Below, piece after piece: positions 403 to 9,218 of a stretch of DNA of 9,218 bases; the stretch's first letter is position 1; every line of letters begins with the position of its first letter. Origin of the DNA: a virus (lineage: Duplodnaviria > Heunggongvirae > Uroviricota > Caudoviricetes); the IMG/VR virus record IMGVR_UViG_2534681649_000003, one strand, 5' to 3'. The notes below the pieces were generated by a model. The model searched no databases, was not told the origin of the DNA, and was given only the letters and a program-made list of their open reading frames with translations. A program made the translations under genes and the position numbers.

Positions 403-1221
403 ATGTGTCAGGTATTTGGTGTATCCAGGAGCGGTTATTACAACTGGGTACAGCATGAACCCTCAGACAGAAAACAAAGTGATGAGCGGCTAAAACTGGA
501 GATTAAGGTGGCACATATCCGCACTCGCGAAACATATGGAACCCGGCGGCTCCAGACGGAGCTGGCAGAGAATGGCATCATCGTTGGTCGTGACCGACTG
601 GCACGTCTTCGTAAGGAGCTAAGGCTACGCTGTAAGCAGAAACGCAAGTTCAGAGCGACTACGAACCCGAACCACAATCTGCCAGTTGCGCCAAATCTGC
701 TGAACCAGACGTTCGCTCCTACAGCACCAAATCAGGTCTGGGTGGCGGACCTGACGTATGTTGCCACACAGGAGGGATGGTTGTACCTCGCTGGCATCAA
801 AGATGTTTATACGTGCGAAATTGTCGGCTACGCCATGGGAGAGCGCATGACAAAAGAGCTGACAGGTAAAGCCCTGTTTATGGCGCTCAGGAGCCAGCGC
901 CCACCTGCCGGGCTAATCCACCACTCTGATCGAGGTTCACAGTACTGCGCATACGATTACCGGGTCATACAGGAGCAGTCTGGTCTGAAAACATCAATGT
1001 CGCGTAAAGGTCACTGTTACGACAACGCTCCGATGGAAAGCTTCTGGGGAACGCTGAAAAATGAGAGCCTGAGCCACTATCGTTTTAATAACCGGGATGA
1101 AGCCATCTCAGTAATACGGGAATACATTGAGATTTTCTACAATCGTCAGCGTCGTCACTCTCGTCTGGGGAATATCTCCCCGGCAGCCTTCAGGGAAAAA
1201 TATCATCAGATGGCTGCTTAA
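403..1221 (+). CDS. IS3-family transposase OrfB (DDE catalytic domain), expressed as OrfAB fusion by -1 frameshift
   Basis: 272-aa ORF in the -1 frame relative to orfA. This frame is open from 304, so a -1 slip at 316-322 fuses OrfA to OrfB. Contains integrase-core motifs (VWVADLTYV..., HHSDRGSQY..., ESFWGTLKNE) typical of IS3-family OrfB. Confidence 0.9.
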   Translation: MCQVFGVSRSGYYNWVQHEPSDRKQSDERLKLEIKVAHIRTRETYGTRRLQTELAENGIIVGRDRLARLRKELRLRCKQKRKFRATTNPNHNLPVAPNLLNQTFAPTAPNQVWVADLTYVATQEGWLYLAGIKDVYTCEIVGYAMGERMTKELTGKALFMALRSQRPPAGLIHHSDRGSQYCAYDYRVIQEQSGLKTSMSRKGHCYDNAPMESFWGTLKNESLSHYRFNNRDEAISVIREYIEIFYNRQRRHSRLGNISPAAFREKYHQMAA

Positions 1222-1261: not shown

Positions 1262-2020
1262 TCACTGAGCCGGAGATTCCGGATCAACGGCAATGCTGAC
1301 CACCGTCTCTTCCTGTGGTGGATTCTGTTGCTGGTGGGCGTGAGGCAGCAGCGCAAGATTTTTTGTGCGCTGCTTCAGTATGCTGGTGGCGGTCTGCTCT
1401 CCCGGCACGATGTCGCTTTCACGGTACATTGAGCGGATTTTTTCCGCACGCAACCCCAGCGAACGACGTAATACTGCTTCCGGTAGCGCGTCCGCCACCT
1501 GATTGCGGACCGCCCACCAGGATAATTCAGCCAGAGATAATTCACGCTCCTGCGTACCGCTTATTGCGTGACCGATGACGTCAATCATCCATGCTGACAG
1601 GTTTTGATGAGCAAGTTGCTCGAGTGATTCGGATGTCTGGTCACGCAACTGGTTGTCGCAGTGCCAGCACAACACCATTGCGCCGGTACCATAACGGTGA
1701 ATGACGGTTTCGCTGTGATGATAATCGCCGTGTGGCCACTGGCAGGATTTAATATGGCGCAACAGCCAGTCAGACAATGCACCAGCACCACCAGCAGCAC
1801 GAATCACCCGTGCGTTACTGAAAAACGGCAGCAATGTTTTGTCTTCCACTAGCGGCTGGCGAACGGCAGGAACGACCCCGGACGGCAGATTACGCATGCT
1901 TTTCGGTTCCGGCTCCACCAGTACCCGGGTATTGTGGAATACCGGCATGGATTCACGGCCTGGCTTAAGGACCACCAGCCCGAGTTCCGGAACCAGAACA
2001 GGTCGAAGTAATACCCGCAC
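1262..2020 (-). CDS. Prophage HNH-like protein (tentatively DUF968/YdfU-like), 3'-truncated by IS600; probable pseudogene
   Basis: 252-codon ORF on minus strand whose stop codon (TGA, 1262-1264) is supplied by the last three bases of the IS600 terminus, so the native C-terminus is missing. Contains Cys/His motif CQWPHGDYHH...LCWHCDNQ resembling an HNH/zinc-finger core. GTG start at 2020 directly follows the stop of the upstream ORF. Family name is from memory, not a search. Confidence 0.55.
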   Translation of the reverse strand: MRVLLRPVLVPELGLVVLKPGRESMPVFHNTRVLVEPEPKSMRNLPSGVVPAVRQPLVEDKTLLPFFSNARVIRAAGGAGALSDWLLRHIKSCQWPHGDYHHSETVIHRYGTGAMVLCWHCDNQLRDQTSESLEQLAHQNLSAWMIDVIGHAISGTQERELSLAELSWWAVRNQVADALPEAVLRRSLGLRAEKIRSMYRESDIVPGEQTATSILKQRTKNLALLPHAHQQQNPPQEETVVSIAVDPESPAQ

Positions 2021-2466: not shown

Positions 2467-2622
2467 TTACTCCTCAGGTTCGTAAGCTGTGAAGACAGCG
2501 ACCTCCGTCTGGCCGGTTCGGATTCGTACCTCGCAGAGGTCTTTCCTCGTTACCAGTGCCGTCACTATGACGGTTAAACAGATGACGATAAGGGCGATTA
2601 ACATCGCCTTTTGCTGCTTCAT
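2467..2622 (-). CDS. hokD: Hok/Gef-family type I toxin (51 aa membrane peptide)
   Basis: Translation MKQQKAMLIALIVICLTVIVTALVTRKDLCEVRIRTGQTEVAVFTAYEPEE has the Hok family signature (single TM helix, ...TRKxLCEVRIRxG..EVAxF.AYE). ATG at 2620-2622 preceded by AAGGAG at 9-nt spacing. Assignment to the HokD/RelF paralogue is from memory of the K-12 sequence; family assignment is firm. The ORF track's 70-aa version starts at an upstream in-frame ATG (2679) with no SD. Confidence 0.85.
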   Translation of the reverse strand: MKQQKAMLIALIVICLTVIVTALVTRKDLCEVRIRTGQTEVAVFTAYEPEE

Positions 2623-2798
2623 AGCCTGCTTCTCCTTGCCTTTCGGCACGTAAGAGGCTAACCTACATGTGTTCAGCATGGATTGAGCCTCAGATTAATG
2701 TTAAGCGTCTTGCAGGACGCGTAGTGTTAACTGGGGCTTTTCTCTATCTGCCTTTTGGTGTTCATGCCTGAGACAGATAGCCTCAAGCACCCGCAGTC

Positions 2799-5770: not shown

Positions 5771-6841
5771 TTACTCCCTGAAGCCCGGCGGAATTTCGTT
5801 ATCCGGTTCAGAAATATGATTCACACAACGCTGGTTGTTCGTGCCGCTTACCGGGAGCAACCAGGGGTTCTCAAAATTCCGGTCCGGTCCAAAAAACGTC
5901 GTCGCTCGCTGAACAAATTCCGTTCCCGTTTTCCCGGTAGCCGCCAGGTATCTTGCGTAACGCCTCACGCCATCCAGCATGGCCTCTGGTGGCACCCCCT
6001 CGCGTAATCTGGCCTTCCAGGCACTGAAAGCGGATTTCTTCGGGTTTGCCCCGGCACGCAACGGGTACTCCCGCCAGACCTGTTCGAACACATCCGGATA
6101 ATCCACTCGTCCCACAGACTGCCCGGTGTTTTCCGGGACTACCCGATCGGCTTCCCGCTGAATGGCGGAATCGGCTTCAGGCTGCTGCAGTTGGTGTGAT
6201 TGCTCCGGACTTGCGGTCATCGCCTGCTGCACAGCGCCCGAATCGGCTTTCAGCGCATACGCTGAATCGGCTTCCGGTGTCGTGCCTGCTGGCTGACCAG
6301 GATTGACGGTCTGAACATCCCCTGCCTGGTTCGTGGCGTTTTTTACGCCATGGACCATAGTGTTTTGATCTTCTTGATCTGTATCTTTATCTGTATCTTT
6401 ATCTGTCGTGACTCGTCGTGACATGTGCGTGACATATCGTGACGCGCCGTGACAATCGCCATTTTGTTCCCGCTTTCTTTCCCTCTCTCGCTGCGCCCTC
6501 TTGCGCTCTGCAGGAGATTTTGCGGTTTGCGAAATATTGCCGTTGTCCTCTTTCAGCACCTGGCGTTTTTCCCATCCAGTGATTAAATCACCATCAAGTA
6601 CCCGCCCCTGCATCGTCTGCAAAATTGAATCAATTACCTCTTCTGTCACGTCGAGCGCACTTGCCAAATCTTCTGTCGTGACATCAATGTGACCTCGCGT
6701 GACATTTCGTGACGCGCTCACCAGGAGGTGGATATACACTGCCATCACTGTTGCAATTGGCTGCCCTGACACCCTGGCAATTGTTCGCCACTTAGGGTCA
6801 TTTGGCATGTCATGCCATAATCTGAGCCAGGCGTTAGCCAT
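5771..6841 (-). CDS. Putative phage replication initiation protein (lambda O-like position), 356 aa
   Basis: Long ORF directly downstream of the cro-like and YdaT-like genes; preferred start ATG 6839-6841 (MANAWLRLWHDMPNDPKW...) with SD AGAGGTGA. The coding sequence contains phased DNA repeat arrays (see repeat features), as ori-lambda does inside gene O. Functional call is by synteny and repeats, not recognised homology. Confidence 0.75.
   Translation of the reverse strand: MANAWLRLWHDMPNDPKWRTIARVSGQPIATVMAVYIHLLVSASRNVTRGHIDVTTEDLASALDVTEEVIDSILQTMQGRVLDGDLITGWEKRQVLKEDNGNISQTAKSPAERKRAQRERERKREQNGDCHGASRYVTHMSRRVTTDKDTDKDTDQEDQNTMVHGVKNATNQAGDVQTVNPGQPAGTTPEADSAYALKADSGAVQQAMTASPEQSHQLQQPEADSAIQREADRVVPENTGQSVGRVDYPDVFEQVWREYPLRAGANPKKSAFSAWKARLREGVPPEAMLDGVRRYARYLAATGKTGTEFVQRATTFFGPDRNFENPWLLPVSGTNNQRCVNHISEPDNEIPPGFRE
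6146..6273. repeat. Four copies of ATCGGCTT (GAATCGGCTT context) spaced 24/72/24 bp inside the replication gene
   Basis: Copies at 6146, 6170, 6242, 6266; spacing in multiples of 3 and 24, encoding repeated (P)EADS(A) peptide units on the minus strand. Confidence 0.7.
6377..6453. repeat. Candidate origin-type repeat block: tandem 12-bp ATCTGTATCTTT (x2 plus partial) followed by five CGTGAC repeats at 10-11 bp phasing
   Basis: ATCTGTATCTTT at 6377-6388 and 6389-6400; CGTGAC at 6407, 6417, 6428, 6438, 6448 (spacing 10, 11, 10, 10). Two GATC sites lie just upstream (6367-6370, 6376-6379). The repeat is read in all three codon phases (CHG, ASR, YVT, MSR, VT), so it is constrained at the DNA level. 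Confidence 0.6.
6645..6713. repeat. Second phased GTGAC array (four direct copies at 10-11 bp spacing plus one inverted copy)
   Basis: GTGAC at 6678, 6689, 6699, 6709 (spacing 11, 10, 10), each in a TCGTGAC-like context; inverted GTCACG at 6645-6650; TTCTGTC precedes two copies. Confidence 0.6.
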
Positions 6842-6912: not shown

Positions 6913-7338
6913 TCAATGCACAGCCACAATATTTCCTGCAGGGCCACCACGATTCATCTGGTTGAAACCAGCGATCGCCACTGCGACAAAATCATCAGCG
7001 TCTCTCACCAGTCGTTCCCGCGTCTCCACTAGTTCCCGAAAATAGGCTGAGCTATGGCTGCGCATTCGGGCCACCAGCAGAGGTGGCATTGCTTTTTCGA
7101 TAGCTGGTAACAACGCCTGAATTTTTTTAAGCGCATCAGGGGTGTCTTTCTCCACCCAGCGGAAAATTTTCTGAGTATTGCGAGCCAGGGCTTCCGGATG
7201 GCTGTCGTCATACAGTTCCGGGAACGTCATTCCCAGCTCGAAATACGCTTTGGTAATTTTCGCAGCCGGTACTTTTTCGCCGTCCGGATGCGCCCAGGCA
7301 TTCATCGCCATGCGGATGTGTTCATGCTTGATTTTCAT
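6913..7338 (-). CDS. YdaT-like (CII-position) prophage regulatory protein, 141 aa
   Basis: Begins MKIKHEHI..., which I recall as the N-terminus of Rac prophage YdaT; sits immediately after the cro-like gene with ATGA start/stop overlap (7335-7338), the position of cII/ydaT in lambdoid early-right operons. Confidence 0.7.
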   Translation of the reverse strand: MKIKHEHIRMAMNAWAHPDGEKVPAAKITKAYFELGMTFPELYDDSHPEALARNTQKIFRWVEKDTPDALKKIQALLPAIEKAMPPLLVARMRSHSSAYFRELVETRERLVRDADDFVAVAIAGFNQMNRGGPAGNIVAVH

Positions 7339-7589
7339 GAATCAACTCCCATCAGCTTTTTCGTAGTAGTTTTATTCCTGCCAATAGTTAAAATTGCATC
7401 GGCAGAAAATAATCCGTTTGATGCAAGAGCGATTTTTTCAGCGTAATTTGTTTCGCCGGTATATTCTGTGCGAGGCAATTTTCCGTTATCCATCCATTTA
7501 TAGATTGCTCTTTGGCTGACACCACAAACGTCGGCCACAACAGCAACGCGAACAGTTTTGATTACATCTTCAAGTGTTTTCTGGTTCAT
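7335..7589 (-). CDS. Cro/YdaS-like small HTH regulator (84 aa)
   Basis: Preferred start ATG 7587-7589 (MNQKTLEDVIKTV...) with SD GAGG 5 nt upstream; HTH-like segment ...VADVCGVSQRAIYKWMDNGKLP...; divergent from the repressor gene. The ORF-track start at 7661 has no SD and overlaps the operator region. Confidence 0.75.
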   Translation of the reverse strand: MNQKTLEDVIKTVRVAVVADVCGVSQRAIYKWMDNGKLPRTEYTGETNYAEKIALASNGLFSADAILTIGRNKTTTKKLMGVDS

Positions 7590-7668
7590 ATCACCCTCAC
7601 AATGTGAACTTTGAGTACATGCTATAACAGAACTGACAGTACATTCAAGAGCGAATATCATTGAACTT
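7590..7668. promoter_or_regulatory. Divergent promoter/operator region (OR-like) between cro-like and repressor genes
   Basis: Plus strand: -35 CTGACA (7633-7638), 17-nt spacer, -10 TATCAT (7656-7661), predicted start at or next to the ATG at 7669 (leaderless repressor mRNA, as for lambda PRM). Minus strand: -35 TTGAAT (plus 7643-7648), 16-nt spacer, -10 TATAGC (plus 7621-7626) for the cro-like gene. Two direct AGTACAT copies (7614-7620, 7638-7644) overlap these elements. Confidence 0.55.
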
Positions 7669-8088
7669 ATGGTTCATGAAGATAAAGCGCGTAAAGAGTT
7701 CGCCAGTAGGCTTGCGCTAGCCTGTGAAAACGCTGGTTATGAACAACATGGAAGGCAGGCAGAAATTGCCCGTCGAATGAAATTAACACCAAAAGCGGTT
7801 AGCAAATGGTTTAATGGCGAAACAATTCCTCGCCGGGAGAAATTAAGGGAATTAGCAACACTAATAGGAACAACACCAACCTATCTTTTGGGAGAGGATA
7901 CAGAAGAAAGTGGACAGGTACGTTTCTATCAGGAGTTAAATCCAAGACAAAAAATCATCATTGACCTTCTGGACGAGCTCCCTGACAGTGAGACAGATGA
8001 ACTTTTAAAAACTCTTGAAGAGAAAAAACAGAAGTACAATGCAATTTACGAAGAGTTAGCACGAAAGAAAAAACAAAAAGCCTCTTAA
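7669..8088 (+). CDS. CI/DicA-like prophage repressor (XRE-family HTH, no S24 peptidase domain), 139 aa
   Basis: HTH_3-type motif ...RQAEIARRMKLTPKAVSKWFNGETIPRREKLRELATLIGTTPTYLLGE...; acidic/basic C-terminal tail but no LexA-like Ala-Gly/Ser-Lys cleavage module; divergent from the cro-like gene; no SD before the ATG. Confidence 0.85.
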   Translation: MVHEDKARKEFASRLALACENAGYEQHGRQAEIARRMKLTPKAVSKWFNGETIPRREKLRELATLIGTTPTYLLGEDTEESGQVRFYQELNPRQKIIIDLLDELPDSETDELLKTLEEKKQKYNAIYEELARKKKQKAS

Positions 8089-8406: not shown

Positions 8407-8845
8407 TAATGACTCCAACTTACTGATAGTGTTTTATGTTCAGATAATGCCCGATGACCTTGTCATGCAGCTCCACCGATTTTGAGAACGACAGTGACTT
8501 CCGTCCCAGCCTTGCCAGATGTTGTCTCAGATTCAGATTATGTCGCTCAATGCGCTGAGTGTAACGCTTGCTGATAACGTGCAGCTTTCCCTTCAGGCGT
8601 GATTCATACAGCGGCCAGCCATCCGTCATCCATACCACGACCTCAAAGGCCGACAGCAGGCTCAGAAGACGCTCCAGTGTGGCCAGAGTGCGTTCACCGA
8701 AGACGTGCGCCACAACCGTCCTCCGTATCCTGTCATACGCGTAAAACAGCCAGCGCTGACGTGATTTAGCACCGACGTAGCCCCACTGTTCGTCCATTTC
8801 AGCGCAGACAATCACATCACTGCCCGGTTGTATGCGCGAGGTTAC
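8405..8845 (-). mobile_element. IS1 remnant, inverted relative to the first copy, truncated at IS1 position ~328 by IS2
   Basis: Begins with the IS1 insB-proximal terminal repeat GGTAATGACTCCAACTTACTGAT at 8405; spot-checked segments are identical to the first copy, with one mismatch found (copy 1 position 4058 T vs C here at 8830); IS1 homology stops at 8845, where an IS2 terminus begins. Confidence 0.9.
8420..8815 (-). CDS. insB: IS1 insB frame in truncated copy (no insA, so no functional InsAB' transposase)
   Basis: Protein identical to InsB of the first copy over its length; the ORF-track product extends upstream as an artefactual read-through into the IS2 end. Confidence 0.8.
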
Positions 8846-9218
8846 TGGATTTGCCCCTATATTTCCAGACATCTGTTATCACTTAACCCATTACAAGCCC
8901 GCTGCCGCAGATATTCCCGTGGCGAGCGATAACCCAGCGCACTATGCGGATGCCATTCGTTATAATGCTCGAACGCCTCTGCAAGGTTCTTTGCTGCCGT
9001 TAACCCGTCTGGTTTGGGCATGATACTGATGTAGTCACGCTTTATCGTTTTCACGAAGCTCTCTGCTATTCCGTTACTCTCCGGACTCCGCACCGCCGTG
9101 TTCTTCGGTTCAAGTCCCAACATCCGGGCGAACTGGCGTGTTTCATTAGCCCGGTAGCATGAACCATTATCCGTCAGCCACTCCACTGGAGACGACGGAA
9201 GATCGTTGCCGAAGCGGC
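8846..9218 (-). mobile_element. IS2 right end (partial; continues beyond window)
   Basis: Starts with TGGATTTGCCCCTATATTTCCAGACATCTGTTATCACTTAACC, the reverse complement of the IS2 right terminal repeat as I recall it, followed by the C-terminal coding region of the IS2 transposase. Confidence 0.85.
8857..9218 (-). CDS. insD: IS2 transposase OrfB (InsD) C-terminal portion; N-terminus outside window
   Basis: Translation ...[119 protein letters not shown] matches the IS2 InsD C-terminus; frame is open to the window edge. Confidence 0.85.

Follow-up and report, generated by a model that had tools for sequence, protein, structure and literature searches.

The DNA analyzed here (IMG/VR record IMGVR_UViG_2534681649_000003, Caudoviricetes; 9,218 nucleotides [nt], the whole of which is called the window) belongs to a Rac/Qin-like lambdoid prophage, and its rep gene (positions 5771 to 6841, minus strand) raises a question: why does the coding sequence of a predicted replication initiator contain two arrays of a very short repeat, GTGAC, at single-turn spacing? 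The translated open reading frame gives a product of 356 amino acids (aa), a replication initiator or replisome organizer of PHROG 3729. We conclude, with a probability of about 0.8, that the segment from 6327 to 6714 is the vegetative replication origin of this prophage, located inside the gene of its own initiator. The observations behind this reading are the architecture of the region, the uniqueness of the arrays in a complete phage genome, the conservation of synonymous sites across distant hosts, and the concerted switching of the motif. Beyond these, we infer that the N-terminal domain of the initiator binds the repeats, that the adjoining AT-rich tract unwinds, and that a helicase is recruited.

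A pattern search placed GTGAC on the plus strand at positions 6408, 6418, 6429, 6439, and 6449 and again at 6678, 6689, 6699, and 6709, with C or T preceding each of these nine same-orientation copies. Read in the sense of the gene, each copy is GTCAC, in most cases followed by G, and GTCACG is the conserved core. Array 1 (6678 to 6714, minus strand) contains four GTCAC(G) sites at gene nt 129, 139, 149, and 160 (spacing of 10, 10, and 11 base pairs [bp]) and encodes aa 43 to 56, which cover the last part of helix 3 plus the loop preceding the helix-turn-helix of the protein. Array 2 (6408 to 6454, minus strand) contains five GTCACG sites at gene nt 389, 399, 409, 420, and 430 (spacing of 10, 10, 11, and 10 bp) and encodes the linker peptide CHGASRYVTHMSRRVT, predicted to be disordered. 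The two arrays are separated by ca. 260 bp. The same search found a single inverted iteron at 6645 to 6649 (GTCAC on the plus strand; GTGAC in gene sense, nt 193), which overlaps the D-V-T codons in the turn of the helix-turn-helix. A preliminary description of the window had listed the nine (T/C)GTGAC copies in two arrays with a spacing of 10 to 11 bp, the inverted copy at 6645, an AT-rich tandem 12-mer accompanied by two GATC sites, and the translation of the motif in all three phases. All of these were recovered where it had placed them, the 12-mer at 6377 to 6400 and the GATC sites at 6367 and 6376, and a reading-phase analysis of rep showed that GTCAC is indeed read in all three codon phases.

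With 22 copies versus 16.5 expected, GTGAC is not unusually frequent in the window as a whole; its clustering was compared with a null set of 2,000 dinucleotide-preserving shuffles of the window. Nine same-strand copies were observed in 310 bp, where the shuffles averaged 2.3 and never exceeded 5, and seven neighboring pairs were found at 10 to 11 bp, where the shuffles averaged 0.03 and reached at most 2. Chance is not the explanation of this clustering. When synonymous codons were permuted with the protein kept fixed, rep contained on average 3.1 GTCAC copies compared with the nine observed (P, ca. 5e-5). In the complete 46-kilobase (kb) genome of Tritos, an isolated phage that has the same module and a rep gene 98.5% identical to that of the window, the two intragenic arrays are the sole GTCAC clusters.

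A first scan of viral contigs provided only relatives that were 98 to 100% identical, unsuitable for conservation tests. The diverged set was obtained with tblastn on phage records together with a scan of one genome per species, followed by alignment, and included homologues 42 to 99% identical, from gamma-, beta-, and alphaproteobacterial hosts, Acidobacteria, and one planctomycete. Codons were analyzed in 22 sequences of the subfamily characterized by the loop NVTRGH..VT, with a GC content at the locus from 0.34 to 0.70 and median identities of 69% (nt) and 73% (aa). All four array 1 sites were kept in 19 of the 22 sequences; the losses were those of site 129 in L092 and L094 and of site 149 in L100, and wherever the four sites were present, the 10/10/11 spacing was retained. 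Array 2 was found in all 23 homologues examined, with 3 to 5 copies at 10 to 11 bp, located at ca. 380 to 430 in the gene (479 to 499 in L100).

Codon usage within array 1 was almost invariant. Val47 was encoded by GTC, Thr48 by ACG, Gly50 by GGT, and Val54 by GTC in 22/22 sequences, His51 by CAC in 21/21, Thr55 by ACG and Ser44 by TCA in 21/22, and Ala43 by GCG in 20/22. Along the same lines, Val65, within the inverted site, was GTG in the 19 of 19 homologues that have Val there; this site is less universal than the arrays, being missing in a few homologues without DVT. For the spacer codon Arg49 and for ordinary four-fold degenerate codons, the commonest codon accounted for just 26 to 50% of the sequences. 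Overall, the median frequency of the commonest codon was 1.00 for motif codons (range, 91 to 100%) versus 0.50 elsewhere (Mann-Whitney P, 1e-6). Thus, the positions and phasing of the repeats are clearly conserved at synonymous sites, with near-fixed motif codons next to freely varying spacer and ordinary codons, and the proposal that selection acts on the DNA and not on the protein held up in these 22 sequences.

A logo built from 163 sites showed GTCAC followed by G in 88% of them, with free spacers. Within the linker, the only invariant residues were H131, S134, R135, V144, and T145, all of them encoded by the motif. Both the copy number and the peptide of array 2 varied among homologues; motif, spacing, and the AGATAAAGATAAAGA tract that follows were constant. 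Copy number changed in steps of 21 nt (two iterons, seven codons), which keeps the frame, and there were five copies in the window versus three in most relatives. Array 1 reached six copies in a prophage of Escherichia albertii (L088:1501-2553).

Other subfamilies do not have GTCAC, and in them two arrays with a different core are located at the same gene positions. The core CGAACGC pairs with the loop NATERGRT (for instance, L120, with sites at 133/143/153 and 354 to 405), GTAACG was found in L119, L126, and L127, GTGACGC in L139, and GCAACGC in Ralstonia phage Firinga (130/140/151/161 and 401/411/421/431). The most informative pair was formed by Erwinia L110 and Enterobacter L111 (positions 1501 to 2000 of each), which encode closely related proteins and differ in the central base at nearly all sites. 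The switch affects both orientations (GTCAC/GTGAC versus GTAAC/GTTAC), and one site of the other type is kept in each locus. To judge from these sequences, such a concerted change fits coevolution with one specific binding protein that would read all the sites. In Shigella phage 75/02 Stx (Shiga toxin), where the N-terminal domain has been replaced and the C-terminal domain kept, the arrays are absent.

L110 and L111 have an extra site at gene nt 224, in the codons of the recognition helix, where the C-to-A difference amounts to a His-to-Asn replacement; the same difference in array 1 sets His51 or Asn51. It is conceivable, although we consider it unlikely, that the same DNA both forms the iterons and encodes the protein segments reading them. 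If iteron-encoded residues did contact the bases, one mutation would alter the binding site and the reading head together. New origin specificities could then arise by a route built into the gene, and the existence of discrete motif classes at fixed gene positions across the family would be explained.

Directly beside array 2 is an AT-rich, purine/pyrimidine-asymmetric tract (6360 to 6407, minus strand; in gene sense, GACAGATAAAGATACAGATAAAGATACAGATCAAGAAGATCAAAAC), a candidate DNA unwinding element. It contains the GATC sites at 6367 and 6376 and the tandem 12-mer ATCTGTATCTTT (6377 to 6388 and 6389 to 6400), which runs straight into the first GTGAC copy. Its GC content (0.30 at 6360 to 6399, with an AT skew of -0.64) is the lowest in the rep gene. 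The AGATAAAGATAAAGA tract came directly after array 2 in all homologues, and the GC content of the 50 bp following the array was 0.22 to 0.46, regardless of a locus GC content of 0.34 to 0.70. In 19 of 20 homologues, the 30-nt window with the lowest GC content of the whole gene began 0 to 22 nt past array 2. The tract has the general form AGATAAAGATAAAGATAAAGA, a GATAAA repeat with 70 to 90% purine on the coding strand, and, as far as the alignments indicate, the 12-mer is a local variant of this family-wide tract. An interpretation of the GATAAA tract as DnaA boxes was rejected by eye; the GATAA half alone is in common, and the rest is missing.

Beyond the AT-rich tract, on the side away from the iterons, there is an imperfect 13-bp inverted repeat (hairpin or palindrome; 6327 to 6357, no strand assigned), with a DNA folding energy of -10.9 kcal/mol (z, -4.5). 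A T-rich run comes after it on the plus strand, and it was flagged as terminator-like. The rep gene of Shigella phage 75/02 Stx, in which the N-terminal domain is a different one, contains the same hairpin with one compensatory exchange of T:A to A:T. Tested across homologues, a hairpin after the AT-rich tract was significant in some only. Other hairpins, short and GC-rich, occur in several homologues at +28 to +80 past the last iteron of array 2.

The assignment of rep as an initiator comes from a full-length match to the profile of PHROG 3729, "replication initiation protein" (E, 9.9e-255; aa 1 to 355 versus profile positions 1 to 355 of 356), and from its context, rep occupying the position of O in lambdoid early-right operons; the RefSeq name of the product is "phage replisome organizer." The preliminary description had suggested a Pfam/CDD search for replication-initiator domains. 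PHROG 3729 and the gene context support an initiator, but Pfam and NCBIfam scans of the full protein returned no family above threshold, and the lambda O family (PF04492) gave no match with the full protein or, even at E values of up to 1, with the isolated N-terminal domain. In the product, an N-terminal winged-helix-like domain (ca. aa 1 to 97) is followed by a basic helix, a disordered linker, and, last, the C-terminal domain. Modeling of aa 1 to 167 with AlphaFold2 (mean predicted local distance difference test [pLDDT], 72) showed three helices followed by a loop (46 to 55), a helix-turn-helix (56 to 63 plus 67 to 77) with a short wing, a basic helix (110 to 126), and predicted disorder from aa 127 onward, with pLDDT values of <50 in the linker.

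The last residues of the protein (aa 333 to 355, ...NHISEPDNEIPPGFRE; 5777 to 5845, minus strand) weakly resemble the C terminus of the host primosomal protein DnaT. A phmmer comparison with PDB found DnaT chains 6aep (E, 0.014), 2ru8 (E, 0.12), and 9zbt (E, 0.33), all aligned at the extreme C terminus (tail ...ISEPDNEIPPGFRE), and the resemblance was limited to the last 22 residues of the rep product. A tail of the type PD..IP.GF(R/K)G also ends relatives that have other C-terminal domains. Pfam did not detect PF17948, the DnaT-like C-terminal domain, in the rep protein; this domain is present in relatives whose N-terminal domains are 85 to 90% identical. The C-terminal domain of DnaT forms filaments on single-stranded DNA and marks a helicase-loading site (PMC13377028).

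Several other explanations of the arrays have to be weighed. The repeats could follow from selection on the protein or the mRNA, through a repeated peptide motif (VT, SR, or CH), codon usage, or RNA structure, and the peptide ASRNVTRGH..VT is in fact invariant in the subfamily. Against this stand the occurrence of the motif in all three phases and the codons themselves: the six-fold degenerate Ser is TCA in 21/22 sequences, and the four-fold degenerate Val, Thr, and Gly are fixed in 21 to 22 of 22, in hosts with GC contents from 34 to 70%, when the neighboring spacer codon and ordinary codons vary freely. In the disordered linker, moreover, nothing is invariant except what the motif encodes, and base switches at the forward sites are matched at the inverted ones, which a peptide or codon bias model cannot account for. 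We therefore regard selection of this kind as extremely improbable. The arrays could also be sites for protein binding with a role other than replication, such as autoregulatory operators, an intragenic transcriptional roadblock, a partition (centromere-like) site, or a packaging site. Operators, partition sites, and packaging sites are also built of helically phased direct repeats, two arrays of ca. five repeats phased at 10 to 11 bp appear to resemble the layout of parC of plasmid R1, and initiators often autoregulate through their iterons. However, the module comes without a partition gene, and the distance to the terminase genes in Tritos is ca. 30 kb. The arrays adjoin a conserved AT-rich GC minimum, which is the signature of an unwinding element and not of an operator. 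A side role in autoregulation would be compatible with an origin and would not replace it, so a function restricted to such non-origin roles appears quite improbable.

A subtler possibility accepts the arrays as the origin but assigns the reading of GTCACG to a factor of the host or to some other protein of the phage, so that the organizer would act downstream only. Binding of the arrays by the rep product is, after all, something that we infer, and a Foldseek search of the N-terminal domain model against PDB gave only weak winged-helix matches (E, >0.2). Nevertheless, the arrays were found solely together with the rep N-terminal domain in hosts ranging from Entomomonas to Pseudothauera and Ralstonia, in which neighboring genes and host factors differ. 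The motif class changes with the subfamily of that domain, and the arrays are gone where the domain was swapped and the C-terminal domain kept (Shigella phage 75/02 Stx). A different reader of the sites is, given this distribution, very improbable.

The reading of the segment as an origin served by the rep product has, nonetheless, several points against it. The isolated N-terminal domain scored below threshold against PF09681 (14.6 bits; E, 0.034; gathering cutoff, 23.3), the best score among the relatives tested being 18.9 bits, for the distant relative L116; the alignment was collinear and nearly full length (rep aa 5 to 110 versus profile positions 1 to 105 of 121). The N-terminal domain gave no significant match to lambda O or to solved DNA-binding initiators. 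In the window, no helicase or loader gene adjoins rep, and a DUF977 gene is found there instead. The prophage copy may be defective because insertion sequence (IS) elements flank the region. The 22 sequences are phylogenetically related, so that the codon statistics do not come from independent samples. Array 1 coincides with an invariant protein segment, and its conservation may be partly at the protein level; this is not the whole story because synonymous sites are also fixed. In the published literature searched, which did not extend to subscription journals, there was no experiment on any member of the family. The same search found no described origin or GTCAC iterons for the rep family, an earlier description being possible, and two published accounts of the replication regions of Shiga toxin phages contained no origin analysis.

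With an intragenic origin as the preferred reading, the question arises of how it compares with known systems. The origin of the ori-lambda type, known from lambdoid phages such as lambda and the Stx phages P27 and 933W, lies in the middle of gene O and consists of iterons and an AT-rich tract, and in Stx phages, two additional iterons lengthen the protein by 13 aa (PMC7466680). The preliminary description had drawn a parallel with ori-lambda, which stands as regards iterons and an AT-rich tract inside the initiator gene; the rep protein has no detectable sequence similarity to lambda O. In both cases, the origin (here, the proposed one) is located at the boundary of the origin-binding N-terminal and the C-terminal parts of the initiator gene, direct repeats are followed by the AT-rich tract in the direction of transcription, and iteron copy number lengthens the protein (here, two iterons of 21 nt in total add 7 aa). 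The operon order, repressor, cro, cII-like gene, and initiator, is also alike. In ori-lambda, a palindrome is located beyond the AT tract, where the hairpin at 6327 to 6357 is found here. Placement in the linker, as in lambda, applies to array 2 and the AT-rich tract and not to array 1, which falls in the part of the gene that codes for the DNA-binding domain. Lambda iterons are ca. 19 bp long and internally symmetric, in contrast to the 6-bp core repeated every 10 to 11 bp in a single orientation. A further difference is that the arrays are two and separated, and no P-type loader gene comes after rep in the prophage of the window.

In phage SPP1, oriL is likewise intragenic: gene 38 contains both an AT-rich unwinding element and the repeats to which its product, G38P, binds (PMC5737612, PMC6316719); a second origin, oriR, is found elsewhere in the genome (PMC6316719). 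The likeness is that a replisome organizer gene carries its own origin, as proposed here for rep, with direct repeats beside an AT-rich element, to which, by analogy, the organizer might bind here as well. Downstream, SPP1 has genes for both a helicase loader and a DnaB-type helicase, and relatives of rep have one or the other: a DnaC-like loader gene comes directly after the rep homologue in Aeromonas phage pAEv1818, and a DnaB-like helicase gene does so in Ralstonia phage Firinga. In Pseudomonas phage phi1, the gene after the rep homologue was annotated by its depositors as "replication protein P." The repeat sequences are, in contrast, unrelated, and an hhalign comparison of the rep family alignment and the N-terminal domain with SPP1 G38P gave a probability of 0.1%, with a spurious linker match only. 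In the Pfam copy used, the match of G38P was to PF09524 rather than to PF09681 ("N-terminal phage replisome organiser," the name used by the depositors of phage Tritos and MW202785). The GTCAC clusters of Tritos are solely intragenic, whereas oriR of SPP1 is outside gene 38. What sets the arrangement apart from the known systems is a very short core repeated once per helical turn, a bipartite layout in which one array falls within the region coding for the DNA-binding domain, and a hexamer-repeat AT tract.

A mechanism along the following lines can be proposed. After derepression, transcription of the minus strand, of the rightward-operon type, would proceed from the cro-like gene through the YdaT-like gene to rep, producing the initiator and at the same time crossing the origin. 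The N-terminal winged-helix-like domain would then bind the GTCACG iterons, as two cooperative arrays of 4 and 5 sites plus one inverted site; given that the sites are 10 to 11 bp apart, the bound protomers would be aligned on one face of the helix. The resulting nucleoprotein complex may stress the GATAAA-type tract beside array 2 until it melts, and the C-terminal part of the initiator would bring in the replicative helicase. Since the prophage has no helicase or loader gene and the initiator has a DnaT-like tail, it probably recruits host DnaB-DnaC or components of the primosome. Such recruitment of the host helicase by the rep product is plausible.

This type of origin may be widespread. 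The region from 6340 to 6720 was found at >=80% nt identity in 2,036 of 5,426 complete Escherichia coli genomes, almost always in the chromosome and with up to five copies per genome. A search of plasmids gave 11 records, for the most part large replicons of E. coli but also two circles of ca. 50.9 kb from Pseudomonas, and is uninformative about autonomous replication. These two circular Pseudomonas aeruginosa records (H64 and H65; CP137943.1 and CP124671.1), filed as plasmids, have the Pseudomonas version of the initiator and may be episomal or circularized phage genomes. Narrowing the origin to a 390-bp segment with a 6-bp core would provide a target for the replication of Rac/Qin-type prophages after induction, including relatives that carry toxin genes, and a sequence signature usable to annotate origins in the rep family. 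The natural specificity variants GTCACG, GTAACG, CGAACGC, and GCAACGC would offer a case of initiator-origin coevolution in which the initiator gene itself harbors the sites.

As for the surroundings of rep, upstream of it are a YdaT-like gene (6913 to 7338, minus strand), a cro/YdaS-like gene (7335 to 7661, minus strand), and a DicA/cI-like repressor gene (7669 to 8088, plus strand); downstream are DUF977, DUF4406, and Ea22-like genes. An IS3 family transposase gene (403 to 1221, plus strand) marks one end of the prophage segment, and a partial IS1 transposase gene (8420 to 8872, minus strand) marks the other. A DUF968 gene (1262 to 2020, minus strand) is apparently truncated, and the prophage copy in the window is probably a remnant. 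A hok/sok-type toxin-antitoxin locus was detected at 2617 to 2792 (minus strand) through its sok antisense RNA (Rfam RF01794; 115.6 bits), which is overlapped by a small open reading frame (2467 to 2679, minus strand); hokD is annotated at the corresponding spot in related prophages.

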